From IMG/VR virus record IMGVR_UViG_3300031857_000094, positions 18,569 to 82,568 of that record: a DNA stretch of 64,000 nt; one strand, 5' to 3'. Source of the stretch: a virus. Position numbers and translations under genes: made by a program. Below, in pieces: positions 5,265-57,550 of this stretch; the stretch's first letter is position 1; the number at the start of each line of letters is the position of its first letter. The notes under the pieces are model-generated. The model was not told where the DNA came from and did no database searches. It saw nothing but the letters and a program-made list of their open reading frames with translations.

Positions 5265-8200
5265 TTAAATCATCAGTGCTATAGCTCTCAAGTCTTTGAC
5301 TCGAGGTGGATTACTGCTTGTGCTATTCGTCAGAACGATCTTAATCGCGAAATACTTAAACTTGCTATATGCAGCACGAGCAGAGTTGCGATACTCAATG
5401 ATACCTGTCGAGTTGTTAGCGCCCGAACGAGCCGTATTGGTATAGTTCGGAACATCGTAAACTAGTTCAAGGAAATCATTTTTATTTTCGCTTGACGAGT
5501 AACGAGTTGCAGCAGTAAAGCCCTGAGATTCGTTAAGCTCCATTGGAATCCAACGAACGTCAGCCATACTATCATTATCTTCAGCCGCAAGGATCTTGTA
5601 GTAAACAAAGATGTTCGATCCGCTTGGCTTATAAGCCGTCAGATAAACGCGGAGATCTTCAGCGTCCTGTCCGTCTGCGAGGCCAACGATACGTGTGATA
5701 TATCGTGTTTCAGCGTTTCCGCCAAACTTGACATAATCTTCTGAGCTACCGATAGCGGCGTTCGTGCTGATCAAGTTATGAGTATGATACAATGCAATAC
5801 GATCAAGATCGATAGCTGGAGAAGCTACGATATTTCTTCCGTCGATCTCATACTTGATTTCCAACGATCTGTTCGTAGCCATAGTAGCAGACGAAGCAGA
5901 AGTGTTAGATTCAATGCTACGACTCAGAACATAACGTGGAGAGCTCAGCTCTGTGTCGCCGTTGATGTTCACTCTGAAGAATGAAGAGTCGCGAGCAGAT
6001 GTAGATGTTGCCATCTTAGCGAAAGCACGAACTTGATTATTCGATGGAACAATCATGTTAGTGATCAGATTCATATTATCAATTGCAACGTTGTTGATAG
6101 TTACGATGCGAGCATTGTATCCACTTGTCTGACCTTTGATATACGTATCAGTCGCGAAAGCACGAGCGTTGGCAAATGCAACGCCGCTATTAACATATGA
6201 AGTATTTGCTACAATCAATCTTGTATTAGCATAGTTGATTGCATCATAGTATGTTACGCGACCAACTGGATACGTGGCTGATGTGATTCCACCAGTTGAG
6301 TTACCAGCGAGCGGCGAAGTCGTTGGGCTTGCGCCAAGACGGAAACGAACTGCTTCGCCACCACGGAACTTAGCTCCAGTCGACACGTCACGAACAACAA
6401 CGTGATTTGCGCTGACAGAAACGATCTTACCAGTAGCACCAGAAGTCATACCCTGAACGAACGAGTTACCTGTAGCAGTATTACCTTTCAGTCCATTTCC
6501 TGGAGTGAACGTTCCCACCAGTCTCGTTTGACCATGAACAACTTCACCAATGCTTGAAAGAGCACCAGTTGTATTTGCGATTGTTAAGTGATCACGAGCT
6601 GGATTCTTAACGATCAACGTACCTACTGTAGATTTGTTAAACTCAGCATAGTATGCTGTGAACTTAAGATCTTCTTTTTGTTCTGGCTGGAATACTCTCT
6701 GATTCGCAGAAACGAACAGAACACCAGCGGCTGGCTGTTCAGAAACAATTGATTTGTCAATTAAATCTTTTCCTCCTAAAACAGCTGTATATACAGAGTA
6801 ATAGGGACTACCAGACTCTGGAGTGATTACGATAGCATATTCAGTTTCATTCGACAAATGAACTGGCGAAGGGAAATATACTGGCGTTGCTGCGCTAGAA
6901 TCCGCACTAGTATTAACTTCTGCAGATGTTAAAGTTACTCTAGAATAAGGAACAACTTTCATCGTTACAGCAGATGTAAGTGGATCTACTTCACGAATAT
7001 CAATTGTAACGCTTCTGATATTATCTTTTGAAGCAAAGAACAAATCAAATTTCGTTAGATACATTCCAGAAGTTTGTGTTTTCGTAGAAAGTATGCTATT
7101 AATAAAGAAACTTTGTCCAATAGGATCGCCATGTGCTGGAACTTCTGGTGGTACCCAATCACCTCCATCGTCATTATCTTCTTCTGGAGCTGGAATAGTT
7201 CCGACAACAACCTGTCCACTTGATGTTGTAACTGAACTTGAACTTCCATATGTTGTTGAGTTCAACGCAGATTGAGTTATTTCAACAGATTTAGTTGTAA
7301 CTGTAAGCGATGAAACTGTTTGAGCCAAACCTTCTGCAGTATAAGTTGCTTCACAAGATGTAACCAACTGACCAAATGATCCAGAATTTGTTGGATTATC
7401 AGTAAATCTAAGGCGTTTTGCTCCAGTTCTAAACTTCAAAGAAGAATCATTTGGCAGTTGGAACGCGCCATAAGCAGTGCCATAAGCATCTGTTACAAAA
7501 GCAGAACCAGCAGCAGCTGCAGGAGTAATTGGTGCTCCTGTTATCGTTTTAAGACCAGAGGTAAACTCTGCTTCTGTAAGTGGTGTAACATATGCATTAA
7601 CATCAACTCCGTCAAAAAATCCATAAACGCGAATTGATGGCATCATTCCTTGCATCTTGAAGAGAATTTGACGCGAGCGCATGTATGGGATGATTGAAGT
7701 ATCTACTACGATATTACCATAAGATGCGGTCGTTGTAACAAATCCGATACCAGTTTGTTCGCCAGTTTGCGTTGTAATAGTAGGAGTAGCATAGTAATTT
7801 TGAGTTTGAGTATCCTGATAGATGATTTGAGAACCATCTATCTGAGTAACAGCATATGTACCGCCAACATTATTTGTCGCGCTTCCTACCAGAACAGGAG
7901 AGCCTGTAAAGCTAGTAATAGGTGCATTCCAATTTGCAGGCCATGTTGATGCTAGGTATTCCCATGAGTCCGTATTTAAATCAATTGTAATATTCGTATC
8001 TGGACCTTCAACCGTATCACACCAATAATCGTTATCAGGAAGAAGTGTTAGTGTACCAACGAAATTCCAAATAGCACCAGCGCAGTTTCTTGTTGTTGTA
8101 GCGTATGGTTGATTAACAAGAATTTTGTGCGAGTATGGAAGCGTTACGAGTTTACCAGCAGTTGTTGCTGTTACAGATGAAACATTTGCTGATTCACTTC

Positions 8201-11200
8201 CGCCAACAGCACGATTTCCAACTACAGTAGCTCCAGCTGCAAAATTAACAATTGCATCCTCAACATACAACTTATTTCCAACCCTATGTCTAATTGTAGC
8301 GGATGGTGTGCTACCAATTTTTACTTCGGTACCAGGAAGGAAAGCTGATGATGATGGTGTAGAAGAAAGAACAATAACTTGATCTCGCGACAAACCAGCA
8401 GGCGTTACGTTCGTGCGAACAACGTTTGCTGAGTTGGCAGTCATCACGAGTGGCGTTTCGTCGTTAGTGAAACGTGGGCGCATTTCGCCCTTAGTAGGAT
8501 CAATAGCAACCTTGTAGTCTAAATCAAACACGTTACCGACAGCATGTGTCGTGAACGAATCCACGAGGATACCGTTCTTGAAACGATCTAAACCGTTGGC
8601 GTCTTGAACAAGCAAGTCTTGTGCTGACAGTTCAAGAAGAGTCAGTGATGTGTAGTATTCAAGACGATCGATGCGCTCCGCAATCTTACCAATATCGCGC
8701 ATTGTATAGCGACGATTGTTGAACTTGCGGAACTTGTTAGCCTGATCTGGACGTCCAACACGACGAGCCAGAACTGGAGGAAGTGATGGATATGGAGCAA
8801 GCTCGATAGAAGCCATAGCCATAACATCATTAGGAGCAGGAGGCGTCGCAGGTCTAACTGCAGGAACACCCTTAGTGACTACAAGACTTCCGTCAGTATT
8901 CAATCCGATGATATCAACACGACGCAGATAGTATTCAAGATCTGTCGTAAAGTCCTGGCCCGTAGGTGAGAAGTGCAAGCCACCTGAAGGAAGAACGAAT
9001 GTGTTCGATGTTTTAGGATTGGTAGCAATAGTGCTTGAAGAAAGTACAGTCACAGAATTAGCTGTATCTGTCATGCGTGGGCGGAAATCTACGCAATCAC
9101 GAAGATCGTATGAGATACCTGTAGAAGGTGAAATATATACAGGAATTTCATATGTAAAAATTTTACTTGTGTTTGTTGCAGCTGTTGCATCGTCAACTGG
9201 ATAAGAATCATACGAGAAAAATCCTGTTGGATTTACCCCGTGTGTAAAGTAATCAAACTTAACAAGCAAACGATCGCCAGAAGCGATAGAAAGCGCGCTT
9301 GATGATTTCTTAACTAGACGAGAATGGCTATAATAACTATCTAGCATACCACTGTCTAGTGTAAAGTGTGATGTTACGTCTGTACCTTCAGTTGCAGAAG
9401 CGAAGTCAGCGCTGCTCTTCTTACGAACTGAAATAAGTTTGAAACCATCTGACAGACCGAGCGACCACGGACCAGTTGTATTGGCTGTATATCCAGACCC
9501 ACCACGATTACTGCCGACATGAATCTGTACAAGTCGATTGCGCTGAACGGATTTAGACTGTTCCTGCCCATTAATTTTGTTTAACGTGGAAACAATTGTT
9601 GCACTAAGAGTAGTAGTTAAAGTTTCGTTGATATCAAACGTTGCACCAGTTGATGATGTAATATTGATAGAACGAGCTCCATCTTTTCCAACACCAGCAA
9701 AGTCAAGAACTTGACCAGGGAAAAATCTTTTAAAGAACGATTTACCAGAACCAGTAACACCGTTTACAGGTCCAAGAGTTGTAATCGTAGAACCACTAAC
9801 TGTGCTTACAATAAACGTATTGCTGACTGAAGAAATATAAATCGCGTCTCCAGGATTTACTTTACCATCAATCGTAGCACTAGCTGTTATTGTATTTGAT
9901 CCATTGGTCGTAGAAAGCGTTTCGCTGAACGTTGTAGTATTGGCGTATCCACGAGAAACGACATAAAAATCTGTTCTTGTAGCAGCATCGCTTAGAACAC
10001 CAGAACCGTCAAACGTTCCATCACTAAGGGTTAATGTAGCTATTCCGCCTGTCGTAAAGGACACATTGTTCGAAACATAGAACGAATAATCGTTTCTAAC
10101 GGTTCCTGATGTGGTGCGCAAACGCTTAATAGCTTGGGCTGGAAGACGGAAAACTGCACGATCAAATAGAGGATCTGAAGTGTTGGCATTTAAACCATTA
10201 GATCCAACAATATCTGCTTTACCATAAACAGTACTACCGCCGCCATTGTAACCAATAGACTGCACAGCCGTGAACGACTGACCTGCAGCCATTGTTACGT
10301 CAGTAAGATATAGCTTGTACTGTGCGCTTGGAAGCCCAGGAGTTCCGCTGTAGTATTCGATACCACGAACACGAGCTGTACCAATTTGAGAACCAGAGAA
10401 AACAGTTGTTGAGTAGTTTCTTGAGCTAACGGCATCAGCTTGCGCTGAACGCAGAGAAACGATGCTCTGTTGATTTACATCCCAGTTACCAACAACGTTA
10501 TCTACAATAACATAGTTGCCATAATCAACTAGCGCTTTTGCAGACTGTACTGCTTCTGAATCTGTTGCTTTTTGAATATTTCTGCCAATAGTAGCAATAC
10601 GTTCGATATCATACCCTTTAACGTATGCTTTTCCTGGCTCAGCAAATACAACTAGGAGTTGATTGTTGCCGCCTTCAGCCGAAGTCAGTACCCCTTGATT
10701 GTTACCAGTTTTAAGGTGTTCTTTTACGTTAATCTCGAATCCATTTACAACGTAATCACCAGATTCATCCGCGGTACGTTTTGCGATGTAATCGCGAATT
10801 TGAGAATACTGCGGACGTGTAGAAATCGACTGAACAACGCCATCCTTAACTTGGAAAAGCTCAACGAATGTGTTAGATACTGTAGCAGTAAGAGCAACAG
10901 AGCGAACGTTGGCCGTAAGTTTAAGACGAGCAGCACCAGGAGCGGCATAGTTGTATGAACCGCTCGCTGGATCAAGCAGTGATTCATCGGTTGTTTCTGT
11001 TACAATAGTTTCTGTAATATCAAAACCAACACGAGCTGACGCGGTTGTCGATTGATAATTACTTACAAGAACAGTTTGTTCTGGAACACGAATAAAGTGA
11101 TCTTTGGCATAAACAATACCAGTATTAAATGTGACTGCGGCCCCAAATCCAGTCGCACCAGATGTGATTGAGTTTGCTGAGTAAATCGTTCCACCACCAA

Positions 11201-11675
11201 CTGTTCTGATGATTTCGTTATTAGCGAAGAAACGATATCCAGTTGAGTTGTTGGCTGCAATATATTTAACATACAACGTTTTATAGTTTGGTGATGTAGA
11301 TTCTGAACCGTCTTTAACTTTAACAACTATACCAAGAACACCAGACGTTGCACCTTTAACGATCTTATTAGAAAAATCGCTAACTGTTACTGTATTACCA
11401 GTTGAATTGTTGTTGCGCAGTTTAACGAAACTATAACGAGTATCGTAATTAGTTTCAAGACCCTGAACGGTTGAACCTTCTCTAAAAATATGCGAAGCGA
11501 AACGATCGATCTGATTTTGAAGGATCGTTTGCATCTGCGTGAGTTCGCGAGCCTGCACAGCCAATCCTGGGCGGAACAGAATACGATGGAAGTTTTTAGA
11601 CTCATCGAAATCGTCGTAGTAAGGTGATACGTTGAAGTTCGTTGAGAGCGTGACGTTATTAGCTTCTGCAGCCAT
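5265..11675 (-). CDS. Large virion structural protein, VrlC/DUF4815-like
   Basis: N-terminal NFNVSPYYDDFDESKNFHRILFRPG..QARELTQ.Q; internal YTMRDIGKI..RIDRLEYYTSL and DRFKNGILVDSF. Confidence 0.85.
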   Translation of the reverse strand: MAAEANNVTLSTNFNVSPYYDDFDESKNFHRILFRPGLAVQARELTQMQTILQNQIDRFASHIFREGSTVQGLETNYDTRYSFVKLRNNNSTGNTVTVSDFSNKIVKGATSGVLGIVVKVKDGSESTSPNYKTLYVKYIAANNSTGYRFFANNEIIRTVGGGTIYSANSITSGATGFGAAVTFNTGIVYAKDHFIRVPEQTVLVSNYQSTTASARVGFDITETIVTETTDESLLDPASGSYNYAAPGAARLKLTANVRSVALTATVSNTFVELFQVKDGVVQSISTRPQYSQIRDYIAKRTADESGDYVVNGFEINVKEHLKTGNNQGVLTSAEGGNNQLLVVFAEPGKAYVKGYDIERIATIGRNIQKATDSEAVQSAKALVDYGNYVIVDNVVGNWDVNQQSIVSLRSAQADAVSSRNYSTTVFSGSQIGTARVRGIEYYSGTPGLPSAQYKLYLTDVTMAAGQSFTAVQSIGYNGGGSTVYGKADIVGSNGLNANTSDPLFDRAVFRLPAQAIKRLRTTSGTVRNDYSFYVSNNVSFTTGGIATLTLSDGTFDGSGVLSDAATRTDFYVVSRGYANTTTFSETLSTTNGSNTITASATIDGKVNPGDAIYISSVSNTFIVSTVSGSTITTLGPVNGVTGSGKSFFKRFFPGQVLDFAGVGKDGARSINITSSTGATFDINETLTTTLSATIVSTLNKINGQEQSKSVQRNRLVQIHVGSNRGGSGYTANTTGPWSLGLSDGFKLISVRKKSSADFASATEGTDVTSHFTLDSGMLDSYYSHSRLVKKSSSALSIASGDRLLVKFDYFTHGVNPTGFFSYDSYPVDDATAATNTSKIFTYEIPVYISPSTGISYDLRDCVDFRPRMTDTANSVTVLSSSTIATNPKTSNTFVLPSGGLHFSPTGQDFTTDLEYYLRRVDIIGLNTDGSLVVTKGVPAVRPATPPAPNDVMAMASIELAPYPSLPPVLARRVGRPDQANKFRKFNNRRYTMRDIGKIAERIDRLEYYTSLTLLELSAQDLLVQDANGLDRFKNGILVDSFTTHAVGNVFDLDYKVAIDPTKGEMRPRFTNDETPLVMTANSANVVRTNVTPAGLSRDQVIVLSSTPSSSAFLPGTEVKIGSTPSATIRHRVGNKLYVEDAIVNFAAGATVVGNRAVGGSESANVSSVTATTAGKLVTLPYSHKILVNQPYATTTRNCAGAIWNFVGTLTLLPDNDYWCDTVEGPDTNITIDLNTDSWEYLASTWPANWNAPITSFTGSPVLVGSATNNVGGTYAVTQIDGSQIIYQDTQTQNYYATPTITTQTGEQTGIGFVTTTASYGNIVVDTSIIPYMRSRQILFKMQGMMPSIRVYGFFDGVDVNAYVTPLTEAEFTSGLKTITGAPITPAAAAGSAFVTDAYGTAYGAFQLPNDSSLKFRTGAKRLRFTDNPTNSGSFGQLVTSCEATYTAEGLAQTVSSLTVTTKSVEITQSALNSTTYGSSSSVTTSSGQVVVGTIPAPEEDNDDGGDWVPPEVPAHGDPIGQSFFINSILSTKTQTSGMYLTKFDLFFASKDNIRSVTIDIREVDPLTSAVTMKVVPYSRVTLTSAEVNTSADSSAATPVYFPSPVHLSNETEYAIVITPESGSPYYSVYTAVLGGKDLIDKSIVSEQPAAGVLFVSANQRVFQPEQKEDLKFTAYYAEFNKSTVGTLIVKNPARDHLTIANTTGALSSIGEVVHGQTRLVGTFTPGNGLKGNTATGNSFVQGMTSGATGKIVSVSANHVVVRDVSTGAKFRGGEAVRFRLGASPTTSPLAGNSTGGITSATYPVGRVTYYDAINYANTRLIVANTSYVNSGVAFANARAFATDTYIKGQTSGYNARIVTINNVAIDNMNLITNMIVPSNNQVRAFAKMATSTSARDSSFFRVNINGDTELSSPRYVLSRSIESNTSASSATMATNRSLEIKYEIDGRNIVASPAIDLDRIALYHTHNLISTNAAIGSSEDYVKFGGNAETRYITRIVGLADGQDAEDLRVYLTAYKPSGSNIFVYYKILAAEDNDSMADVRWIPMELNESQGFTAATRYSSSENKNDFLELVYDVPNYTNTARSGANNSTGIIEYRNSARAAYSKFKYFAIKIVLTNSTSSNPPRVKDLRAIALMI

Positions 11676-11687
11676 GATACCTTCCAA

Positions 11688-18411: not shown

Positions 18412-18839
18412 TAGCGGACCTTATTGAGATTGATGTCTAGTGTTAGTTGATTCAGAGTCGTGACGTTTCGGAATCTAATCGTAACATACAACTCGTTACT
18501 ATCACGATTTTCAGTAACGGTTACAGGTTTCGACTCTCCGCTAATATCAGCTCTAGGCTCAAAGTTTTCGATCGCGTTAACAATCAAGTTCTCAAAGTCG
18601 CTAGCCGCGATATCATCAAAGTTCTCGAACAGCCTAGAGCGAATATTTCCACCATAGTTCGGAAGAAACGGACGCTCGTAAGTATTAGTCAGAATCAAAT
18701 TCTTCAAGGCCTGCTTTACAGCATCATCATCTTTTTTAATCAGCAGCTTTCCCGTCGATGGATGACGACGAAACTGAAGATCAAAATCACGGAACGTGAT
18801 CTTTTTGAGTGAAGCTGGTAGCGGTCTTTTGTTATTCAT
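18411..18839 (-). CDS. gp25: Baseplate wedge subunit gp25-like
   Basis: AVKQALKNLILTNTYERPF.P.YG and FEPR motifs. Confidence 0.9.
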   Translation of the reverse strand: MNNKRPLPASLKKITFRDFDLQFRRHPSTGKLLIKKDDDAVKQALKNLILTNTYERPFLPNYGGNIRSRLFENFDDIAASDFENLIVNAIENFEPRADISGESKPVTVTENRDSNELYVTIRFRNVTTLNQLTLDINLNKVR

Positions 18840-27301: not shown

Positions 27302-28009
27302 ATGGCATTACCTAAGGTTGCGACTCCACGCTTTTCGCTGGAGCTACCGTCTAATGGAAAAAGAGTATCGTTTAGATCATTCTTGGTGAAGGAAGAAAAA
27401 GTATTGCTGATGGCCGCTCAGTCGGAAGATCCGTTGGCTATGATTGATGCAGTGAAGGATGTTATTGCGTCGTGTATCGTTGATGATCTCGATGTTAATA
27501 AGCTGCCCTACTTTGATCTGGAATATCTGTTTCTGAATATTCGCGCCAAGTCTATCGGCGAAATCGTCAAGATGGAGTATCGTCATATCGACGGCGTGAA
27601 CTATCAGGGAATTAAATGCGAAGCGGTGACGCCCGTAGAGATTAATCTAGAGCAGGTCAAGGTTCAACGCGGCGAAGGACATACGAGCAAAGTCAAGCTC
27701 GACGATAGACTAGGAATTGAACTGAGATATCCTACGATTAATGACGTCAAGCTGATCACGGGTGGTAATGACGAGATCGAAATGCTAGCTCGTTGCATTC
27801 TTAGCGTATATGACGCGAATGATGTGTATGAGCCAGATAATCTACAGGATGCAGTTCAGTTCGTTGAGTCGTTGAATTCAAATCAGTTCGCTGAGATTAT
27901 GAAGTTTATTGACACGATGCCCAAGCTAAGACACACATTTAAATATAAGTGCAAGGGATGTGGACAGGAAGATACCATTACGCTGGAGGGTATGTCTGAT
28001 TTTTTTTAA
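27302..28009 (+). CDS. gp26: Baseplate hub assembly / tail chaperone
   Basis: MALPK, RSFLVKEEKVLLMA, FDLEYLFLNIRAKSIGE and CxxC..LEG..DFF. Confidence 0.9.
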   Translation: MALPKVATPRFSLELPSNGKRVSFRSFLVKEEKVLLMAAQSEDPLAMIDAVKDVIASCIVDDLDVNKLPYFDLEYLFLNIRAKSIGEIVKMEYRHIDGVNYQGIKCEAVTPVEINLEQVKVQRGEGHTSKVKLDDRLGIELRYPTINDVKLITGGNDEIEMLARCILSVYDANDVYEPDNLQDAVQFVESLNSNQFAEIMKFIDTMPKLRHTFKYKCKGCGQEDTITLEGMSDFF

Positions 28010-32318: not shown

Positions 32319-33233
32319 TTATTCATCGTCCTCAGCCAGCTTGTTGAAGAAATCCAAATCGTCATCTTCATCAATAGTAGGCTTCTTTGCAGGAGCAGCC
32401 GTCTTACCAACTGCTGGAGCCGCAGACGGACGCGGAGCAGGACGCTCAAAAGGGATATCGTCATCCTCACTCTTACGAGCAGCGCCGTTTGGTTCAGACA
32501 GAACCTTTTCCAAACGCTTCTTGAGTTCATCATAGCTCTTGAACTTATCAGCAGCTACGAGTTCAGCAAGTGAAAACTGCGTCTTCCAGATTGCTTCCAT
32601 ATCATCATCGTCATCGAGCAGCGGAGCTGGTTCATCGAACTCAGACTTGTCGTAGTTACGATAGCCTTCAACCTTACGAATCTTCAGCTTGAAGTTAGCG
32701 CCAGCCCACAGATCGAATGGATTCGTCGGCTTTTCGTCTTCGAACTCAGGATTCATCTTCTCGTTGATCTTGTCGAAGATCTTCTTACCAAACTTGTAAA
32801 GGAAAACCTTTCCTTCGTTCTCAGGATGAGCGGGATCCTTGACAACATAGATGTTGGCGATATAGTTCAAGCGACGCTTCTGCTTACGAGCAATCTCCTT
32901 GTCCTTGTCGTTACCTGAGTTCCAGAGCTTGGAGTTATACTCAGCGACAGGATCGGTCTGATTGAGAGTAGTCAGAGAGTTTTCGATATACCATCCGCCT
33001 GGACCTTGGAAACCATGATTCCAGATACGGACCCACGGAAGTTCTTCGTTAACAGGTGCGGGAAGGAAGCGAATGATAGCGTATCCGTTACCAGCCTTAT
33101 CAACTTCTGGCTGCCAGTAGCGATCATCAGACGAAGATCCCTGTTCCTTGTTGGCGAGCTTGTTGATTTCTTTGGTGAGACGCTCCAGCGAAGAAGTGCG
33201 CTGACGCTTGAGGGCAGAAAATGATTCGTTCAT
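32319..33233 (-). CDS. gp32: Single-stranded DNA-binding protein
   Basis: DKAGNGYAIIRFLPAP, WYIENSLTT, YKFGKKIFDKI, NYDKSEF and an acidic tail. Confidence 0.96.
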   Translation of the reverse strand: MNESFSALKRQRTSSLERLTKEINKLANKEQGSSSDDRYWQPEVDKAGNGYAIIRFLPAPVNEELPWVRIWNHGFQGPGGWYIENSLTTLNQTDPVAEYNSKLWNSGNDKDKEIARKQKRRLNYIANIYVVKDPAHPENEGKVFLYKFGKKIFDKINEKMNPEFEDEKPTNPFDLWAGANFKLKIRKVEGYRNYDKSEFDEPAPLLDDDDDMEAIWKTQFSLAELVAADKFKSYDELKKRLEKVLSEPNGAARKSEDDDIPFERPAPRPSAAPAVGKTAAPAKKPTIDEDDDLDFFNKLAEDDE

Positions 33234-33281
33234 GTATGTCTCCGTTGTATGTTCGGTGTGTTACGTCTTATCCACTTAATC

Positions 33282-33310
33282 ATCATATAAGTTATATAGC
33301 GTGTTGTCAA
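33282..33310 (-). promoter_or_regulatory. sigma70-type early promoter
   Basis: TTGACA-N17-TATGAT. Confidence 0.75.
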
Positions 33311-33903
33311 GACGCAAATACATCACGCATAACTTTTTTTATCGTAGCCTTCTCGACCTTTACGAATGGGCGATACTTACTCAGCTGACGATAGAACTCA
33401 GGCCAGACAACTGGATCGTCGATTTCGTTGTTCCATTTGTCTAGAACATCAAATGTAATATCAAAGGCAATAACAGTTTCGGCTGCAATCTTGTTCGCCA
33501 TATACATCTTCAATAATACTGGATGCGTCTTTTCAACCAGAAGAATACGGCTTACGCTGTTATTGCATTCATCAAGTAATGTTTCCAGATCTTGCTTCAG
33601 ATAGTATGAAAAGGCTTCCATACGTTTCTGCCAGTTGAGATAAACTTTCTCAGACTCTGGACCATTCATTTCTCCAACCCAGCGAACTCCTGCGTTGGAT
33701 ACAAAGTTAGCAACGAAGAAATCTGTTAGTTCTTCATCACTGTATTTACGTTCCAACTTACGAAAGAGATACTGATCCTTTCGCTTGAGGAACGATTCCT
33801 CGCTGATCTTGCGGATCTTGCCACCATACTTCACAAAGTCATAATCAGAAGTGAAGTGTAGCTTGAGCGCCTGATAGCGGCTGTAGGCTTTCATCCCTTC
33901 CAT
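33307..33903 (-). CDS. gp59: Helicase loader
   Basis: Y.ALKLHFT.DYDFVKYGGK and F.KRKD.Y.F.KL motifs. Confidence 0.9.
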   Translation of the reverse strand: MEGMKAYSRYQALKLHFTSDYDFVKYGGKIRKISEESFLKRKDQYLFRKLERKYSDEELTDFFVANFVSNAGVRWVGEMNGPESEKVYLNWQKRMEAFSYYLKQDLETLLDECNNSVSRILLVEKTHPVLLKMYMANKIAAETVIAFDITFDVLDKWNNEIDDPVVWPEFYRQLSKYRPFVKVEKATIKKVMRDVFAS

Positions 33904-46757: not shown

Positions 46758-46967
46758 TCAGCTCCTCTCAACTGTATCGAGCAAATCTTCGAGCCACTCA
46801 GCTTCATTAGCCAAGCGACAATTGATACCCAGTTCAAACTCGTCGTCGAGTTCAAACTTCACGCGACTTGCGCGACGCACTTCAGTCAGTCGATCATACA
46901 AAGCAGCGATGATAGCCTGCTTCGCTTGCGCTGGATCAGGCGGCAGAAAGGAAGAGTCGGTCATCAT
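46758..46967 (-). CDS. Hypothetical protein
   Basis: ORF with AAGGA RBS; start reassigned. Confidence 0.5.
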   Translation of the reverse strand: MMTDSSFLPPDPAQAKQAIIAALYDRLTEVRRASRVKFELDDEFELGINCRLANEAEWLEDLLDTVERS

Positions 46968-47136
46968 GGAAGTCCTTTTCCATTCGCTCGAGAATCGCGT
47001 CGCGTTCGTCGAGCAGTTCGTTACCAAAGTCGGTAATTTCCGCGAGAATCAAATCACGCGGCTTGTTCATGTGATGCGCATCGAGAACGAGTTGCGCGAT
47101 ACGCATAGCGATTGAGTCGTAGTCAGTGAGGGACAT
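46936..47136 (-). CDS. Hypothetical early protein ending in LSAA
   Basis: AAGGAG RBS. Confidence 0.6.
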   Translation of the reverse strand: MSLTDYDSIAMRIAQLVLDAHHMNKPRDLILAEITDFGNELLDERDAILERMEKDFHDDRLFLSAA

Positions 47137-47147
47137 GATATAACTCC

Positions 47148-47366
47148 TTAGGCAACATCAAGAACGAATTGCTGCTCAACTCCCTCGGAGTCGATGAGGC
47201 AGATTCGGTTGTTGTCAAGAACGATGGTATACAGCTCGCAGAACTGATCGGCGTAGTGAACCAACGGATTCGGTGATTCAGTTCCTTGGAACACCTGAAG
47301 ATCATACGAATCCATCGGGCGGAACGTAGAACGGGCTACGAGGGCGAGGGCTTGAATGGCGTTCAT
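47148..47366 (-). CDS. Hypothetical early protein
   Basis: AAAGGAAG RBS before MNAIQ; downstream of a promoter. Confidence 0.6.
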   Translation of the reverse strand: MNAIQALALVARSTFRPMDSYDLQVFQGTESPNPLVHYADQFCELYTIVLDNNRICLIDSEGVEQQFVLDVA

Positions 47367-47391
47367 GTCACTTCCTTTCATCATATACTTT

Positions 47392-47420
47392 ATTCTATCA
47401 CTGGCGAGCGTGATTGTCAA
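47392..47420 (-). promoter_or_regulatory. sigma70 early promoter
   Basis: TTGACA-N17-TAGAAT. Confidence 0.8.
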
Positions 47421-47535
47421 GGCGGTTACTGCAACATTTTTGCAATAACCAATCCCATGCCAAAGCCAGCGAGCCAGTTGATGGCAAAGAGGGCGAATTC
47501 GATTTTATTGTCACGAGTCATGTCAGTTCCTTTCA

Positions 47536-48670: not shown

Positions 48671-49453
48671 TTATGCGAAAAACGAATCGAGAGTGCTGCC
48701 GACTTCTTTTCTTGTATCTCTGAGTCTCAGTTCGGCATGACCAGTTGTTTCGCGGATATACATTGTGCAGAGGCCAGGATAACGATCAGCAAGAATTTGA
48801 GCTGACTCGTGGATGCGCTCGCTCGTGCGAGTAACCTGCATTCCGCCATCTTCAGTATAGTATTTAGATTTGACAGTGATATCGTCAAGACGAACAACTT
48901 TGCCGTCCTTGACGTAGTGCTGAAGCGTGCGCTCGAAGTCTTCCTTATCGTCGAGCGTAACAGTCAAGTCTTGATCGTGACGAGTGATGAGACCCCAGCA
49001 CGAACCGATGCAGTAATACAATCCAACTGCTACACGGTTCTTCATGAACATGGCGTTAGCTGCTGCATAAACGCCAAACAGATTAGCACCGTTCTTCTGA
49101 CACTCAACGAATCCACGACAGATAACATCACCTTCAAGATCAGTGACAGGAACCATAGTCTTGTCATCAATCTTCTTCATGACTTCTGACAGATCGTCAT
49201 CAAAGTTCATGACCTGAGTTCCCTCAGGATAGTATCGCTGAATGAAACGACGAATCGCACCCATACCAACCTGACCGATCACGATCTTGTATTGTTCAGG
49301 AAGTTCTTTGCGATAGGTTTCGTATTCTTCTTGATTGCCTACGAATACCGTGATCTTTTCTGCGGGGATATTATGACGCTCGAGCAGCGCGAGAGTTTTT
49401 TCACGCAGCGTTTTTGCGCGGCGATAGCTCGGGATTGCGATTACATAGTCCAT
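48671..49453 (-). CDS. TET-associated glycosyltransferase (TAGT/GREB1-like, GT-A fold)
   Basis: IAIPSYRRA, NFDDD, KEDFERT and GGMQ motifs; same operon as TET/JBP. Confidence 0.8.
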   Translation of the reverse strand: MDYVIAIPSYRRAKTLREKTLALLERHNIPAEKITVFVGNQEEYETYRKELPEQYKIVIGQVGMGAIRRFIQRYYPEGTQVMNFDDDLSEVMKKIDDKTMVPVTDLEGDVICRGFVECQKNGANLFGVYAAANAMFMKNRVAVGLYYCIGSCWGLITRHDQDLTVTLDDKEDFERTLQHYVKDGKVVRLDDITVKSKYYTEDGGMQVTRTSERIHESAQILADRYPGLCTMYIRETTGHAELRLRDTRKEVGSTLDSFFA

Positions 49454-50387
49454 TCGTTTCCCATTTCCATGAATCAAGGATAATCTGTTCTAGATTTCTT
49501 TCGGGCTTCCAGCCAAGAATCTTTTCAGCTTTTTCTGCGTTCGCGACAAGCGAAGGTGGATCACCAATTCGACGTATATCATATTGGAAATTGATCGACT
49601 TGTCAAGAACTCTTTCAGTCGTGTTAATAAGCTCTAGCATCGACGTGCCGTTGCCAGATCCAAGATTGAATGGCTCAGCACATCTGTGGCTTTCAAGATA
49701 CTGCAAAGCCAAAACGTGGGCGTGGGCTACGTCTTGAACATGCAGATAGTCGCGAACACAAGTTCCATCTTTCGTTGAGTAGTCATTACCAAAAACCTTG
49801 AATGGCGTATTGTTAATGATAGACTTCAACAGAATCGGAACAGCGTGTGTTGGCGTCTTTGAGTTGTAGCCGTGATTCTTACCTGAGCCAGCGACGTTGA
49901 AATAGCGCAAAGAAACGCTGCTGATTCCATGAGCATGATATACTGCTTCCAGCATCTGCTCTGACCACAGCTTCGTTTGTCCATAAGGATTGAGCGGAGT
50001 AGTTGTGCGATTTTCGTCGATCTTCGATGCAGAAGCATCATAGACTGCTGCGCTGCTGCTGAACACAATCTTGACGTCAGTTTCCTTAGCGTATTCAAGC
50101 AGACGCAACATCGAACACATATTGTTCTGATAGTATTTCAGCGGATCTGCTACGCTTTCGGGAACGACATGGCTTGCTGCCATGTGAATGATAGCGTCGA
50201 ACTTTTTGTAGTATGAATGAAGCCCGAACTTGTTGAGATCAAAGTTTAAAACTTCGACATCGAGCTTCTTAGTCCAATCATTGATTACACGGTCAAAAAC
50301 CGTAACCGTGTAACCGTAGTAGAGGAGTTCATCGACAACAGCACTGCCGATGAACCCACTTCCTCCAGTCACTAGAACATGTTTCAT
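49401..50387 (-). CDS. galE: UDP-glucose 4-epimerase
   Basis: VTGGSGFIGS, VPESV.DPLKYY.NN, FSSSAAVY, YGQTK, LRYFNVAG and DGTCVRDYLHV.D motifs. Confidence 0.9.
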   Translation of the reverse strand: MKHVLVTGGSGFIGSAVVDELLYYGYTVTVFDRVINDWTKKLDVEVLNFDLNKFGLHSYYKKFDAIIHMAASHVVPESVADPLKYYQNNMCSMLRLLEYAKETDVKIVFSSSAAVYDASASKIDENRTTTPLNPYGQTKLWSEQMLEAVYHAHGISSVSLRYFNVAGSGKNHGYNSKTPTHAVPILLKSIINNTPFKVFGNDYSTKDGTCVRDYLHVQDVAHAHVLALQYLESHRCAEPFNLGSGNGTSMLELINTTERVLDKSINFQYDIRRIGDPPSLVANAEKAEKILGWKPERNLEQIILDSWKWETNGLCNRNPELSPRKNAA

Positions 50388-51793
50388 GCAAAGAAATCTT
50401 CAAGAGAGGTTTGATTAGTACCTTTACCAATTTTATTTAGAACTTCTTCTGCTTCATCTGTGAGACCATTGTTTCCAAGATACTCACCCCATTCTTCCGT
50501 ATCCCACATTCCTGGCGATACTCCGTTCCAGTTTTCTTGCCAGAGCGGATGTTCTTTATTGTTTCTGCGCATATAGACGAAGTTCTTACGAGCTTCTTCA
50601 TACTTCTTAGAGCCACACTCAAGCATTGACTCACGGAAATACATCACGACTGACATACGCTCGAACCCTTCTTCGTAGTCGAACGCAGGAGAGTTGCTGT
50701 GAATACGATGAGCGTTCATCATAATCATGTCGCCAGCACGAATATCAGCAGCTACCCGAAACTCAGGGAAGCAAAGATAAAAGCCGTCATAATGCTTGCC
50801 ATTGTCAAGGACGAGAAGATTACTAAAGCCTCGAGGGTTTTCATGTGACTCCCATGATTCGCATAGATCGCCAACGTCACGATGCGCTGCTGTGCGGAAG
50901 TCGCGATTGATTGTTAGAGTTGTATATGGTGTATTACCAATCTGCCAGTCTTTACCTAGCTTCTGCATTGCTTCCATCTGACCAGCAAAGCGAATCGGAA
51001 TGTTTTCTTGGAACACGCGCGATGCTTCTTCGAACAGAGGCAGAGCTGATTCATACAGCTCGTGATGACTTGCGCTCCAGCCCGTTTCGCGACAGAATGG
51101 AATGCGTGGATAACGATCCATGAATCCACCAACGCCAGAACGAACGCCGTTCGCATAAGTTGTATCTGAAATCATGTCATTCAGAATATGATCTGCGGCG
51201 AGCTTACGATCCTTAGACGTTTTATCCTTGACTGAGTCGTACCAATCGTCGAACACGAAGTCCTTCGACTTGTTTACAATCCAAATCGCACCAGCACCAA
51301 TTTCACCTTTGTTCTTGTCTGCTCCAGATCCACGACCTTGCAATGGCTTATCTGGAGTTGTGCTGTAGATTTCATGCAGCATATCTTCGCCAGTAATAGA
51401 AAGCGGCGAACCCTTAGCCATATACTGAAGAACAGCTTTTTCGCGCTGCGTCACCCAGCGACGAGAACCTTCGCCGTCTGGTAACTTCTGATAAGCTGTG
51501 TCGCGTTCGATACCAGCAGCAAGCCCACGATTGTCAGACATGATCGCACCAGAACGAAGAGCAGTATAAGCTGCGTCTGTCATTTCCTTCGAGAACACAC
51601 CTTTACGGAACTTGCAGAGCAAATTCTTTTCAGAATGCGTTTCGCCGTTTGCGATTTGCAAAGGAGTCAGTGGTTCATAAACATCAGTATCTTCAGTCAG
51701 CACTAGATCATAGCAATCATGATCTAGGAACTTACCTAGCATATGATCCATCTTGTTAAGATTAGAGTGTTCGAGATAGATTTTCTTTACCAT
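50384..51793 (-). CDS. TET/JBP-family 2OG-Fe(II) dioxygenase
   Basis: TT.TINRDFRTAAHRD.GD (HxD), GD....NAH..HSN and R.SVVMYFRE motifs. Confidence 0.85.
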   Translation of the reverse strand: MVKKIYLEHSNLNKMDHMLGKFLDHDCYDLVLTEDTDVYEPLTPLQIANGETHSEKNLLCKFRKGVFSKEMTDAAYTALRSGAIMSDNRGLAAGIERDTAYQKLPDGEGSRRWVTQREKAVLQYMAKGSPLSITGEDMLHEIYSTTPDKPLQGRGSGADKNKGEIGAGAIWIVNKSKDFVFDDWYDSVKDKTSKDRKLAADHILNDMISDTTYANGVRSGVGGFMDRYPRIPFCRETGWSASHHELYESALPLFEEASRVFQENIPIRFAGQMEAMQKLGKDWQIGNTPYTTLTINRDFRTAAHRDVGDLCESWESHENPRGFSNLLVLDNGKHYDGFYLCFPEFRVAADIRAGDMIMMNAHRIHSNSPAFDYEEGFERMSVVMYFRESMLECGSKKYEEARKNFVYMRRNNKEHPLWQENWNGVSPGMWDTEEWGEYLGNNGLTDEAEEVLNKIGKGTNQTSLEDFFA

Positions 51794-51820: not shown

Positions 51821-52399
51821 CTATGTATGCTTCAGGAGATTTTCATATGTGTTGAAATAGACGTTTTCACCAGCAATCTTAGTCACATTTTGGATACTAG
51901 GGAAAATAAAAATGAAATCAACTTCTGGATGCTTCCGCACAAGCCACTGAAGATAGTTCACACGACCAGGATTGTCTCCCGCGCTCGCGCGAGTATCAGC
52001 GCCATAGTTGTCTGTTCCATCGTAGATGTTGGAAAGAAGTTGATTGCCATCTTGAATCAAAAAGTCAAAACCAAGACAGATAATCTGATTGTATTCCATC
52101 TTGATCGCTTCACGCATAGCATTCATGCCAGCATTACTACGAGGACGACCAATGTTACATTCAGCAGGTTCCCAGCGTTCATCAATCGGTGGTACGATGA
52201 AACGCTTTGAAGGGAAGTCGCTGCCTTCTATCTCGGTAATGATACCATCATCAATACTAACGAGGAAATCAGGAAAAGACCTGTCAGGGTAATCACGATA
52301 AAGCGCATTGCAACCAAACACCGTTCCATATGGTTTCAGTTTAGTAAGATCGAATCCCTTGCGACTCGTACCATTACCGATGATAAAAGCTGTGTTCAT
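51821..52399 (-). CDS. Rossmann-like protein resembling the CstII-type sialyltransferase / MptE-like family
   Basis: AFIIGNGTSR, GCNALYRD, SNAG..A and I.CLGFDF motifs. Confidence 0.55.
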   Translation of the reverse strand: MNTAFIIGNGTSRKGFDLTKLKPYGTVFGCNALYRDYPDRSFPDFLVSIDDGIITEIEGSDFPSKRFIVPPIDERWEPAECNIGRPRSNAGMNAMREAIKMEYNQIICLGFDFLIQDGNQLLSNIYDGTDNYGADTRASAGDNPGRVNYLQWLVRKHPEVDFIFIFPSIQNVTKIAGENVYFNTYENLLKHT

Positions 52400-52977
52400 G
52401 CTACTTCTTTCTTAGTAGAACCTTTCGGACGACCGCGCCCACGCTTGACAGGAACTTGAGTTTCATCATACTCGAGAAACGTTGAGTTGTCAAGTTCAAC
52501 CTCCTGTACAATAGGAGCTGGCTGTTCGATTGGCGTTGCAACCTTACGACCCCAGGCTTCCCACAGATTAGGGAATGCTTCAGCAATCGCTTCGGGCATA
52601 ATCTTGATCTGACGATTTTTCATACGAAGGAGCAGCTTAGCATCACGCGGATCAATGGACTCAAGCACCTGAATGAACAACTGTTCGCGCTTGAGCTGCT
52701 TGACTTGAGCACCTTCAGGGCTATCGACGAAATAGATCAGCTTCTTGCATTCAATGTAGAAACGTCCTTCCTGATCAGCTGCATCAAACAGAGGGCGATA
52801 CGGCGGATCACCATCAGGAAGCAACCACTTCACGCCTGGATCCATGCCATAACCTAGAACAGCCTTAAGAGCATAAGAGCTATGCAGCTTTAGGAACTCA
52901 GCTTGCTTTTCTGCAGTCGTTTGTGCTTCAATCTTTGAAACAATATTAGCCATACATTTGTTTGTATCAAGGGCCAT
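52396..52977 (-). CDS. Conserved-type T4-like hypothetical protein with a C-terminal AT-hook
   Basis: WLLP.G.PPY, KREQLFIQVLE.I.P.DA and KRGRGRPKGS. Confidence 0.7.
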   Translation of the reverse strand: MALDTNKCMANIVSKIEAQTTAEKQAEFLKLHSSYALKAVLGYGMDPGVKWLLPDGDPPYRPLFDAADQEGRFYIECKKLIYFVDSPEGAQVKQLKREQLFIQVLESIDPRDAKLLLRMKNRQIKIMPEAIAEAFPNLWEAWGRKVATPIEQPAPIVQEVELDNSTFLEYDETQVPVKRGRGRPKGSTKKEVA

Positions 52978-53275
52978 CATTAATCTCCACTGGTTCGTAT
53001 GCAATTACATTTATAAACTGTTTCTTCTGTTCGTCATCCCACGCAGCGAGATAATCGTTTTCCTGATCGAACAACTTGAGATATTCTTCTTCACTGATTT
53101 CGCGATGATCGATGATTGCAGTAGGATCAAGATGCTTCTGACTGAACTCCTTGAACGTAGTATCGTTTTCGCGCCACACAACTTCATCGAGCGCATCAAT
53201 GACATTGTTTTCGACACGCACGACATAACGAATGCGGAACGAAGAAAGAACATCGACCATTACGAGCTTAGACAT
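52967..53275 (-). CDS. Hypothetical protein
   Basis: V.VD.LSSFRIRYVV; EFSQKHL. Confidence 0.65.
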   Translation of the reverse strand: MSKLVMVDVLSSFRIRYVVRVENNVIDALDEVVWRENDTTFKEFSQKHLDPTAIIDHREISEEEYLKLFDQENDYLAAWDDEQKKQFINVIAYEPVEINDGP

Positions 53276-56523: not shown

Positions 56524-56552
56524 ATCATAGCACATTGGCTGTTAATTGTCAA
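56524..56552 (-). promoter_or_regulatory. sigma70 early promoter
   Basis: TTGACA-N17-TATGAT. Confidence 0.75.
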
Positions 56553-57550
56553 GGCTTGTTTGCCATAGAAGCTAGGAAATCCCGCCACTGACTAGCCCGA
56601 ACGTCCCAATTATAGAACGAGTCGAAGTAGGCTTTTTGAAACTTGAGTCGTTCTTGATTGAATGGCGCTCTGTATTCCTTAATGACCATAGCCAATATGC
56701 CAGCGAACACATTGGCGTGCTTGTTATTGTTTTCTGTCCAGCCATACTGAACTGCGAAGTTGGCGCATGTTTCTGGAAGCGCAGCCAATGTTGGGCAAAT
56801 AACATTGCAGCCAGCGCTCATAGCCTCGATGACTGAGATACCAGAAGTTTCTGGCCAGATGCTGGGATATGTATAGATGTGCGCTTTCTTGAGAGCTTCG
56901 CGAATAACAGAGTTTGGCTGCCATCCATGATAAGTCATTTTGCCGTTGCGTTTGATACGTTCAAACAGTTCCTTGTATGGTTCATCGCGCTGTGGCCATC
57001 CGTAGATACCAAACGATGAATAGACATCAAGATGGAAGTCGAGCCCCTTATCAGCTAGGAACTCTACGACTGGAACAAGAAGCTCGAGTCCACGATGCGG
57101 AGTTGTATGATAGATCAGATTGATCGTGCCTTCAGGCTTTTCGTGAGGCTCGATAGGAACGATCGCGTTCTGAAGAACGATACCCTTGTCGTATGGTACT
57201 CCAAGTCCGAGATTGTAAGTAGACTGCTGATAGTGTGAAACGAATACGAGTTTCTCGAATCGGTCAAGACTCTTGGCGTCCTTCAGATGTTGTGACTCTG
57301 GATCGTCGAAAGTATCGTGTAGCCACAGAATGTTTTTCTTTGTCTTACTGATGCTATCTTCGCGCACGCGCGAGCAGATGATATTGAACTGATCAGTCAG
57401 CTCGTTTGGTAGTCGTGCCATCAAGCCTTCATACATCTGCTCAGTTCCACCCTTGGAACCAAGATGTGCATATGTACCATTCTTAGCTGGCTCAAGATCC
57501 TTAGCCTTAGTCGCGCTTTCTTTGAGTCCAGAGATATTCAATTTAGTCAT
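56549..57550 (-). CDS. GT-B glycosyltransferase (GT4-like)
   Basis: GGTE, LWLHD, TPHRGLE and YPSIWPETSGISVIEAMSAG motifs. Confidence 0.88.
   Translation of the reverse strand: MTKLNISGLKESATKAKDLEPAKNGTYAHLGSKGGTEQMYEGLMARLPNELTDQFNIICSRVREDSISKTKKNILWLHDTFDDPESQHLKDAKSLDRFEKLVFVSHYQQSTYNLGLGVPYDKGIVLQNAIVPIEPHEKPEGTINLIYHTTPHRGLELLVPVVEFLADKGLDFHLDVYSSFGIYGWPQRDEPYKELFERIKRNGKMTYHGWQPNSVIREALKKAHIYTYPSIWPETSGISVIEAMSAGCNVICPTLAALPETCANFAVQYGWTENNNKHANVFAGILAMVIKEYRAPFNQERLKFQKAYFDSFYNWDVRASQWRDFLASMANKP

Follow-up and report, generated by a model that had tools for sequence, protein, structure and literature searches.

The TET/TAGT locus and its C-terminal tails

The DNA considered here is a stretch of 64,000 nucleotides (the window), positions 18,569 to 82,568 of the viral IMG/VR record IMGVR_UViG_3300031857_000094. 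Its minus strand carries adjoining genes for a TET/JBP-family 2-oxoglutarate/Fe(II) dioxygenase (TET), a GalE-like sugar-nucleotide epimerase and a TET-associated glycosyltransferase (TAGT) (Table 1). TET and TAGT have unrelated folds and end in similar hydrophobic-acidic peptides. Judged from the sequence comparisons below, they are likely to serve as docking peptides, comparable in kind to the tail of the DNA polymerase gp43, that attach to the gp45-type sliding clamp of the phage itself.

Translation of the minus strand gives NQTSLEDFFA* as the C-terminus of TET (50384-50416) and VGSTLDSFFA* as that of TAGT (48671-48703); the range 48671-50410 runs from the TAGT stop codon up to the first codon of the TET tail. 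A preliminary description of the locus had reported both tails (QTSLEDFFA and GSTLDSFFA) and a GalE without one between them, and translation confirms this; GalE ends PRKNAA. The canonical PIP (PCNA-interacting protein) box reads Qxx(L/I/M)xx(F/Y)(F/Y). The Q-T-S-L-E-D-F-F of TET fits it, and TAGT has G instead of Q, so that the fit is confined to TET. Bacterial beta clamps recognise the consensus QL(S/D)LF, which by eye fits neither SLEDFF nor TLDSFF.

Table 1. Features of the window, and C-terminal tails of gp43 and of modification enzymes in related phages (aa, amino acids)
Feature	Position	Strand	Remarks
TET/JBP-family 2-oxoglutarate/Fe(II) dioxygenase (TET), 469 aa	50384..51793	-	PF12851 (Tet_JBP), E 2.8e-13, residues 234-388
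TET tail TSLEDFFA	50387..50410	-	preceded by Q, giving Q-x-x-L-x-x-F-F
GalE-like NAD-dependent sugar-nucleotide epimerase, 328 aa	49401..50387	-	PF01370, E 9.7e-52; ends PRKNAA, tail-less
TET-associated glycosyltransferase (TAGT, GT-A like), 268 aa, TTG start	48671..49477	-	PF20691, E 9.1e-14
TAGT tail STLDSFFA	48674..48697	-	from translation
Two conserved genes adjoining TET upstream: 192-aa protein (phrog_30607), 202-aa DUF6433 protein	51821..53004	-	tail-less
gp32 single-stranded-DNA-binding protein and gp59 helicase loader	32319..33903	-	phrog_224, E 1.6e-121; phrog_269, E 1.8e-55
G001 tails			gp43 SSLEDFFS; TET VTLEDYFA; TAGT NTLDSFFE
Stenotrophomonas phage DLP6 tails			gp43 ATLDSFFA; TET ATLGDFFV; TAGT DLSSFFN
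Phage C48C1 tails			gp43 ATLEDFFG; TET SLEEFFV; Dam-type methylase STLDAFFG
Caulobacter phage Cr30 endings			gp43 DLSSLFD; TET GATLF; weak TAGT match DLSKLF

Both family assignments lie well above the profile cut-offs. TET scores 49.8 bits against 34.9 for PF12851, and its H304-R-D306 motif, H362/H365 and R379 are invariant in 25 homologues; the HxD...H iron triad and the 2-oxoglutarate-binding arginine are present, with the catalytic His and Arg putatively assigned. TAGT scores 52.3 bits against 27.5 for PF20691 and covers positions 2-205 of the 205 in the profile. In its acidic DxD-like motif (a DDD stretch) D87 is invariant and D86 at least 90% conserved. An alternative TAGT start, an ATG at 49453, would give a protein of 260 aa.

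In AlphaFold models the mean predicted local distance difference test (pLDDT) is 87.5 for TAGT and 81.6 for TET. TAGT has its last strand at 240-244 and a tail helix at 255-259, and its last block has a pLDDT of 52; in TET, a coil (455-463) leads to a short helix (464-468), with a last-block pLDDT of 55. Both tails are thus modelled beyond the last element of the fold on short, low-confidence linkers, as expected for a tethered docking peptide.

Polymerase tails and clamps in related phages

In T4, according to passages of the published work, gp43, gp55 and gp33 carry highly similar, interchangeable hydrophobic-acidic clamp motifs at their C-termini (PMC2988020), and the motif has been named LDFL (PMC9690074). 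The preliminary description started from this motif; its existence is in print in those passages, while the exact form (S/T)LDF(L/F) is that description's own wording.

The contig behind the window comprises 82,568 bases and is estimated to be 50% complete. It carries T4-type genes for the gp2 end protector, tail tube, baseplate proteins, gp32 and gp59, and is assigned to a T4-like phage because gp32 and gp59 serve as markers. A megablast search of the region against GenBank phages gave no match, and relatives were reached by tblastn. The reference relative is G001, an IMG/VR record of 157,580 bases (estimated 90% complete) whose TET is 87% identical to that of the window. The two genomes are collinear: 78 of the 103 contig open reading frames (ORFs) have homologues in G001, and the contig corresponds to G001 positions 107.5-157.5 kb plus 0.7-32.7 kb. 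The G001 replication module (46-68 kb; gp55 at 47 kb, a C5-methyltransferase at 51 kb, gp45 at 60 kb, then gp44/62, and gp43 at 65.6-68.1 kb) lies outside this part, and its counterpart is therefore to be expected in the missing half of the phage.

The comparison with the polymerase C-terminus, proposed in the preliminary description, was made on relatives: gp43 of G001, DLP6, C48C1 and Cr30 ends like the TET and TAGT proteins of the same phage (Table 1). The last seven residues of the window TAGT, TLDSFFA, are the end of DLP6 gp43, and the window TET tail is nearly the same as the gp43 ending KQSTLEDFF(S/A/G) of the clade. Among 37 IMG/VR loci built around clamps related to that of G001, all 15 gp43 proteins end in (S/T)LE(D/G)FF and 13 of them read KQSTLE(D/G)FF, with a Q-S-T-L-E-(D/G)-F-F that fits the PIP pattern; in 89 loci centred on TET, the tail is present on 28 of 29 gp43 proteins.

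That the gp43 tail itself meets the clamp is suggested by RB69: a passage of PMC2988020 describes a co-crystal in which the last 11 residues of gp43 lie on the clamp's hydrophobic patch. HMMER aligns G001 gp43 (...sekrssledff) with RB69 gp43 (...yekkaslfdmf) at residues 887-901 of 903, and at the level of the alignment the tail of the clade's gp43 is shown to be the positional homologue of the RB69 clamp-binding C-terminus. The clamp of G001 was missed by PF02916 (DNA_PPF); it was detected by a BLAST search that used the annotated clamp of DLP6, and comparison with solved structures confirmed it as a full-length homologue of RB69/T4 gp45 (1b77/1b8h, E 1.1e-30; 1czd, E 9.6e-29). Each of G001, DLP6, Cr30 and C48C1 has a gp45 homologue.

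The tails of the modification enzymes also tend to follow the local form of the polymerase tail. In locus L168, TET ends SLEDLFA and gp43 SMGDLFG; in Cr30, gp43 and TAGT share the LF form. A comparison of 15 distinct TET/gp43 pairs gives 65 identities at 90 positions, where shuffles give 57.9; a count of 65 is attained in 168 of 10,000 shuffles, relatedness being ignored. This co-variation signal is modest.

Distribution of the tail among proteins

The tail was sought with the pattern L[DEGSA]x[FYL]Fx{0,2} at the C-termini of six-frame ORFs of at least 30 aa. On the whole contig it occurs in 2 of 725 ORFs, which are TET and TAGT. Six genomes hold 19 matches among 8,395 ORFs: four gp43, four TET, four TAGT, one Dam methylase and six unannotated ORFs of 43-101 aa. 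The last six set the background at about 0.07% per ORF. The 89 TET-centred loci contain 106 tailed ORFs among 3,667, of which 50 are TET, 28 gp43 and 12 TAGT. Another 10, about 447 aa long, are encoded immediately downstream of TET, and all five that were tested belong to Glycos_transf_1 (GT-B). The others are an amino-acid:DNA transferase (ADDT; PF18724), a P-loop kinase (PF18751), two T4_baseplate proteins, one unknown protein and one small ORF.

Several of these carriers deserve individual mention. The ADDT (L132:18424-19407) ends ALEDFFN and the P-loop nucleotide kinase (L132:20600-21247) ends SLDDFFS; both are of the thymidine-hypermodification type and share their locus with a tailed TET. 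In phage C48C1 (OQ984149.1) a Dam-type N6-adenine methyltransferase (PF02086; L051:13480-14364) adjoins gp43 and ends STLDAFFG, matching the gp43 and TET tails of this phage. Directly downstream of gp43 in two clamp loci (L077:17870-18691 and L099:14522-15346), a 273-aa PP-loop ATPase (Asn_synthase/QueC-like) ends (N/S)TLEDFF. From its ending and position it may be a further clamp-tethered DNA-modifying enzyme, its chemistry being unassigned.

Conservation is strong in TAGT. Among the best 120 of 405 matches in a large protein collection (53-92% identity), the tail is strict in 91, a one-step variant in 20, and missing or on a fragment in nine. In an alignment of 16 TAGTs, in part with no more than 13-23% identity, only seven columns are invariant, and two of them are the tail residues L255 and F258. 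Likewise, the window TAGT (type A) and the G001 TAGT (type B) are 21-23% identical and both keep the tail.

The search for further clients of the T4 kind gave little. No gp33 was identified, and gp55 was rejected as a further tailed client, its homologues having no FF tail. One observation made alongside concerns Cr30 (KF301602.1), in which an unannotated 43-aa ORF (154662-154793, plus strand) ends LLDFLFGD; it is the only T4-like LDFLF ending, resembling the T4 LDFL, and could be a small clamp-binding factor or chance.

Predicted complex of the tail with gp45

A complex prediction, as proposed in the preliminary description, was run with three copies of G001 gp45 and residues 425-469 of the window TET, using self-made alignments and a clamp taken from a relative. 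The interface score (ipSAE) was 0.58 (runs of 0.56, 0.58 and 0.61); the best of three controls reached 0.04, and a control in which an unrelated protein replaced the clamp gave 0.00. The runs share at least 77% of contacts, with a partner pLDDT of at least 52. In the benchmark, 58 of 80 solved complexes passed the mark, as did 2 of 110 mismatched pairs; those passing at 0.60 or below were only 7 of the 80 solved complexes and both of these mismatches. A like complex (1b8h) has already been solved, and predictor memory may contribute to the score. The prediction thus lends weak support to a TET tail-gp45 complex.

Evidence against clamp docking, and other explanations

A number of observations weigh against clamp docking. 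One is the patchiness of the tail in TET. Among the best 120 of 985 matches, grouped by identity to the window TET, the tail is strict in 34 only: 5 of 12 at 79-91%, 1 of 30 at 69-79%, 4 of 41 at 48-64% and 24 of 37 at 40-44%, a group in which eight further TETs end xL(D/P)I. Among 20 close IMG/VR relatives, eight are strict, one ends STLDDF, five end NENSTL(M/V), and six end LGLEQTF/LGLEPAH or similar. In L127 and L129 TET ends xLDI while gp43 ends TLDSFF. The idea that LGLEQTF, LGLEPAH and xLDI are alternative clamp motifs paired with other polymerases is unsupported, as gp43 of L127 and L129 still ends TLDSFF and the contigs of the LGLE type have no polymerase. The preliminary description had counted lack of conservation among homologues as evidence against its reading; this tells in part against the reading for TET, since entire sub-lineages have a missing or altered TET tail, but not for TAGT, whose tail is conserved (91 strict and 20 variant of the 120). 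Next to TETs without the motif, TAGT keeps it in L021, L023, L026, L113 and L114, and in L116 TAGT carries the variant TLESFMS. Farther afield, negative controls speak for docking: the TET-like proteins of podovirus HTVC112P and siphovirus P12024L, outside the T4-like phages, are tail-less, and so is TET of S-CBWM1, a phage that yielded neither a PolB nor a gp45 homologue. In the T4-like Melnitz, gp43 ends TTLEDFFG and the TET-like protein NLNDFLGE.

Other points concern the clamp and its clients. Neither a family-B polymerase (PolB) nor a gp45 clamp is recognisable on the contig, so that the cognate comparison rests on relatives, and the complex prediction lends weak support. In G001 the homologue of the late sigma factor gp55 (46932-47474, within L035) ends KRGSKKAAS, with no hydrophobic-acidic tail, and gp55 elsewhere (DLP6 LSIEEDLG, Cr30 IENVKEAS, C48C1 DLSEWMED) is only vaguely tail-like; clamp-activated late transcription may differ in the clade of G001, DLP6, Cr30 and C48C1. 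Two C5 DNA methyltransferases, which act on DNA, are tail-less (G001 L179:1441-2580, ending YEELQ; Melnitz-3 L182:850-2067, ending NAETNG). The preliminary description had taken the tails as a sign that DNA is the substrate. The tail-less sugar-donor enzymes, namely the window GalE and the NTP-transferase/kinase fusion at the same place in G001, agree with this, but the methyltransferases show that it is no rule; if TET acts on 5-methylcytosine (5mC), the first step of the pathway would be untagged. Moreover, tail-like letters alone are unspecific. The window baseplate protein at 27302-28009 (plus strand; phrog_150, PF12322 in relatives) ends LEGMSDFF, matching looser patterns only, and its relatives end GLKDFFL and GLSDFFV; this xDFF ending is probably unrelated to the clamp. 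Finally, the only published precedent of the kind, the in-vitro interaction of T4 alpha-glucosyltransferase with gp45 (cited as reference 20 in bioRxiv 10.64898/2025.12.06.692756; PMC13216743), was not reproduced in that 2025 preprint, in which, according to the passages concerned, the C-terminally His-tagged alpha- and beta-glucosyltransferases did not co-purify with gp45 in vitro or in vivo.

These points leave room for other explanations, of which a partner other than gp45 is an unlikely one. The tail would then bind gp32, gp59 or the host beta clamp, and the enzymes would still be recruited to replicating DNA, though not via the phage clamp. The likeness to gp43 tails is at the sequence level only, the tail-less gp55 of G001 (gp45-dependent in T4) leaves clamp use in the clade unproven, and the complex prediction is weak. 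Against this stand the alignment of the gp43 tail with the RB69 C-terminus crystallised on gp45 (a passage of PMC2988020), the gp45 homologue in all four complete or near-complete tail-bearing genomes, and the zero score of the unrelated-protein control; the host beta clamp in particular is disfavoured by the misfit of the tail to its consensus.

It seems a shade less probable still that the tail is some other shared signal, such as a degron, a capsid-packaging signal or an oligomerisation handle, its likeness to the polymerase being convergent or incidental. The G(L/M)xDFF endings of PF12322 baseplate proteins show that such C-termini occur in contexts without DNA, and the TET tail is dispensable in several sub-lineages. 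However, all identified carriers outside the baseplate family are polymerases or DNA-modifying enzymes, the sugar-nucleotide enzymes of the same operons are tail-less, and the tail follows the local gp43 variant, FF or LF. Very improbable is the notion of functionless remnants spread by recombination at 3' gene ends between neighbours, for example from gp43. The tails are indeed short and nearly identical to that of gp43, and the cassettes downstream of TET have been swapped between close relatives; mere remnants, however, would hardly keep the tail leucine and first phenylalanine invariant across TAGTs 13-23% identical elsewhere, or a strict or variant tail in 111 of the best 120 of 405 TAGT homologues. 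The occurrence on at least seven unrelated folds, against the low background per ORF, argues in the same direction. Docking on the phage clamp, the mechanism put forward in the preliminary description, is supported over these alternatives by the gp43-like form of the tails, their conservation in TAGT and their recurrence on unrelated DNA-modifying folds.

A model for clamp-tethered modification

Each enzyme would consist of a compact catalytic domain, a short flexible linker and an eight-residue hydrophobic-acidic peptide, (S/T)L(D/E)xFF. The peptide would enter a hydrophobic pocket on the face of a clamp subunit, and the trimeric clamp would offer three such pockets. Clamps loaded by gp44/62 at primer ends or nicks would carry TET and TAGT along the new duplex, and base oxidation and glycosylation would be processive and would take place soon after synthesis; GalE would only supply the UDP-sugar and would need no tether. 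Loaded clamps on newly copied DNA are preferred here over enzymes acting at the fork itself because, according to passages of PMC2988020 and PMC9690074, late transcription in T4 is activated by clamps that stay behind on the DNA. We infer that the tails bind gp45, that the enzymes slide with the clamp, and that modification is coupled to replication and selective for phage DNA. In this scheme, phage DNA would probably be masked by clamp-riding enzymes on freshly copied DNA.

The balance of evidence leans, if narrowly, towards a wider reading: the polymerase's C-terminal peptide would serve as a portable clamp tag, by which whole hypermodification pathways are recruited to gp45 in a large environmental T4-like clade. 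Part of this same tentative proposal are its enzymes (TET/JBP, GT-A and GT-B glycosyltransferases, amino-acid:DNA transferase, DNA kinase, Dam methylase and PP-loop ATPase) and its picture of the clamp as a moving workbench, on which the daughter duplex would be modified processively and swapped sugar cassettes would keep the tag on the enzyme that touches DNA.

Two substrate bases come into question for TET. No C5-methyltransferase was found on the contig, nor in DLP6, C48C1, Cr30 or S-CBWM1, and one was found in G001, which points to 5mC, 5-hydroxymethylcytosine (5hmC) and then glycosyl-5hmC in that phage. The TET substrate of the window phage would be 5mC if it shares the G001 C5-methyltransferase, and otherwise T; in some relatives TET occurs together with genes for an ADDT and a kinase of the sort found in thymidine hypermodification. 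The sugar cassette differs as well: the window has GalE and a type-A TAGT (48671-50387), and the G001 cassette (L024:11426-14151) consists of a 520-aa NTP-transferase/APH-kinase fusion, an ORF of 130 aa and a type-B TAGT. This swap suggests a different sugar on the DNA of the two phages.

Surrounding genes

The two conserved genes upstream of TET (Table 1) are collinear with G001, at 81% (phrog_30607) and 79.5% (DUF6433) identity. The minus strand also encodes two tail-less proteins at a distance of 5-7 kb upstream of TET, a 333-aa Glycos_transf_1 glycosyltransferase (56549-57550) and a small 2-oxoglutarate/Fe(II) oxygenase (PF13640; 58239-58829). A 455-aa radical SAM/SPASM protein (PF04055, PF13186; 37864-39231, minus strand) ends ELLENFL and matches a loose pattern only. 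Among the structural genes there is an ORF of 2,140 aa (5265-11687, minus strand), 73% identical to a G001 ORF of 2,226 aa. In GenBank the TET/JBP homologues of DLP6, Cr30 and S-CBWM1 (L002:4962-6308, L004:4959-6287 and L005:3729-5165) are labelled 'SNF2 DNA repair protein'; the label looks wrong, as the window homologue matches PF12851 only.

Relation to known systems and significance

The tails resemble the motifs of T4/RB69 gp43, gp55 and gp33, as described in passages on these proteins, in being hydrophobic-acidic peptides at the extreme C-terminus, on a flexible linker and portable between proteins. They differ in sitting on DNA-modifying enzymes rather than on a polymerase or transcription factors, and in reading (S/T)L(D/E)xFF rather than LDFL. 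The T4 alpha-glucosyltransferase would likewise be a T4-type DNA glycosyltransferase on the clamp, modifying DNA as it is replicated, but the conserved gp43-type tail is found here on another family (TAGT, PF20691), and the passages concerned give no tail motif for the T4 enzyme. T4 DNA ligase, with an internal clamp-interaction loop (PMC6212786), is also a gp45 client beyond polymerase and transcription factors; by the title of that paper its mode of interaction is 'unique' rather than by way of a C-terminal tail.

In eukaryotes, DNMT1 binds PCNA through a PIP box, which raises its action on newly replicated DNA, as reported in a passage of PMC9690074. There too a clamp-binding motif sits on a DNA-modifying enzyme, and the window TET tail fits the PIP pattern; unlike the tails described here, a C-terminal tag on several enzymes of one phage pathway, the DNMT1 motif is internal and N-terminal and belongs to a single enzyme. 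Published phage systems with TET/5mYOX enzymes and glycosyltransferases (PMC8256090; bioRxiv 10.1101/2023.12.21.572611; PMC13229309) have similar contents, namely TET/JBP, TAGT or GT-B, epimerases, kinases and sometimes a C5-methyltransferase. In the main-text passages of these three papers, 'clamp' occurs only as a neighbouring gene or in the context of ParB, and no clamp-binding tail is mentioned. Nor was any description of clamp-binding tails on phage DNA-modifying enzymes found in the literature searched, most subscription journals and supplements lying outside its scope. The kind of motif is known; as far as this search extended, there is apparently no earlier description of it as a tag shared by an entire DNA-modification pathway.

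Post-replicative hypermodification shields phage DNA from restriction enzymes and CRISPR. If the proposal is true, the clamp tether would be a concrete mechanism by which the enzymes reach every phage target base in time, a phage counterpart of DNMT1-PCNA, and would explain the quick and selective masking of the phage's own DNA. The contested notion of a T4-type glycosyltransferase working on the clamp would likewise be revived, now with a firmer basis in sequence. According to passages of the published work, phage TET and glycosyltransferase enzymes were expressed with C-terminal His tags; such tags would bury the docking peptide, and clamp dependence may have been missed both in those studies and in those of the T4 glucosyltransferases. 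The tail would, moreover, be a cheap sequence marker for phage proteins of unknown function that act on DNA, such as the PP-loop ATPase adjoining gp43 or a 390-aa protein in L169.

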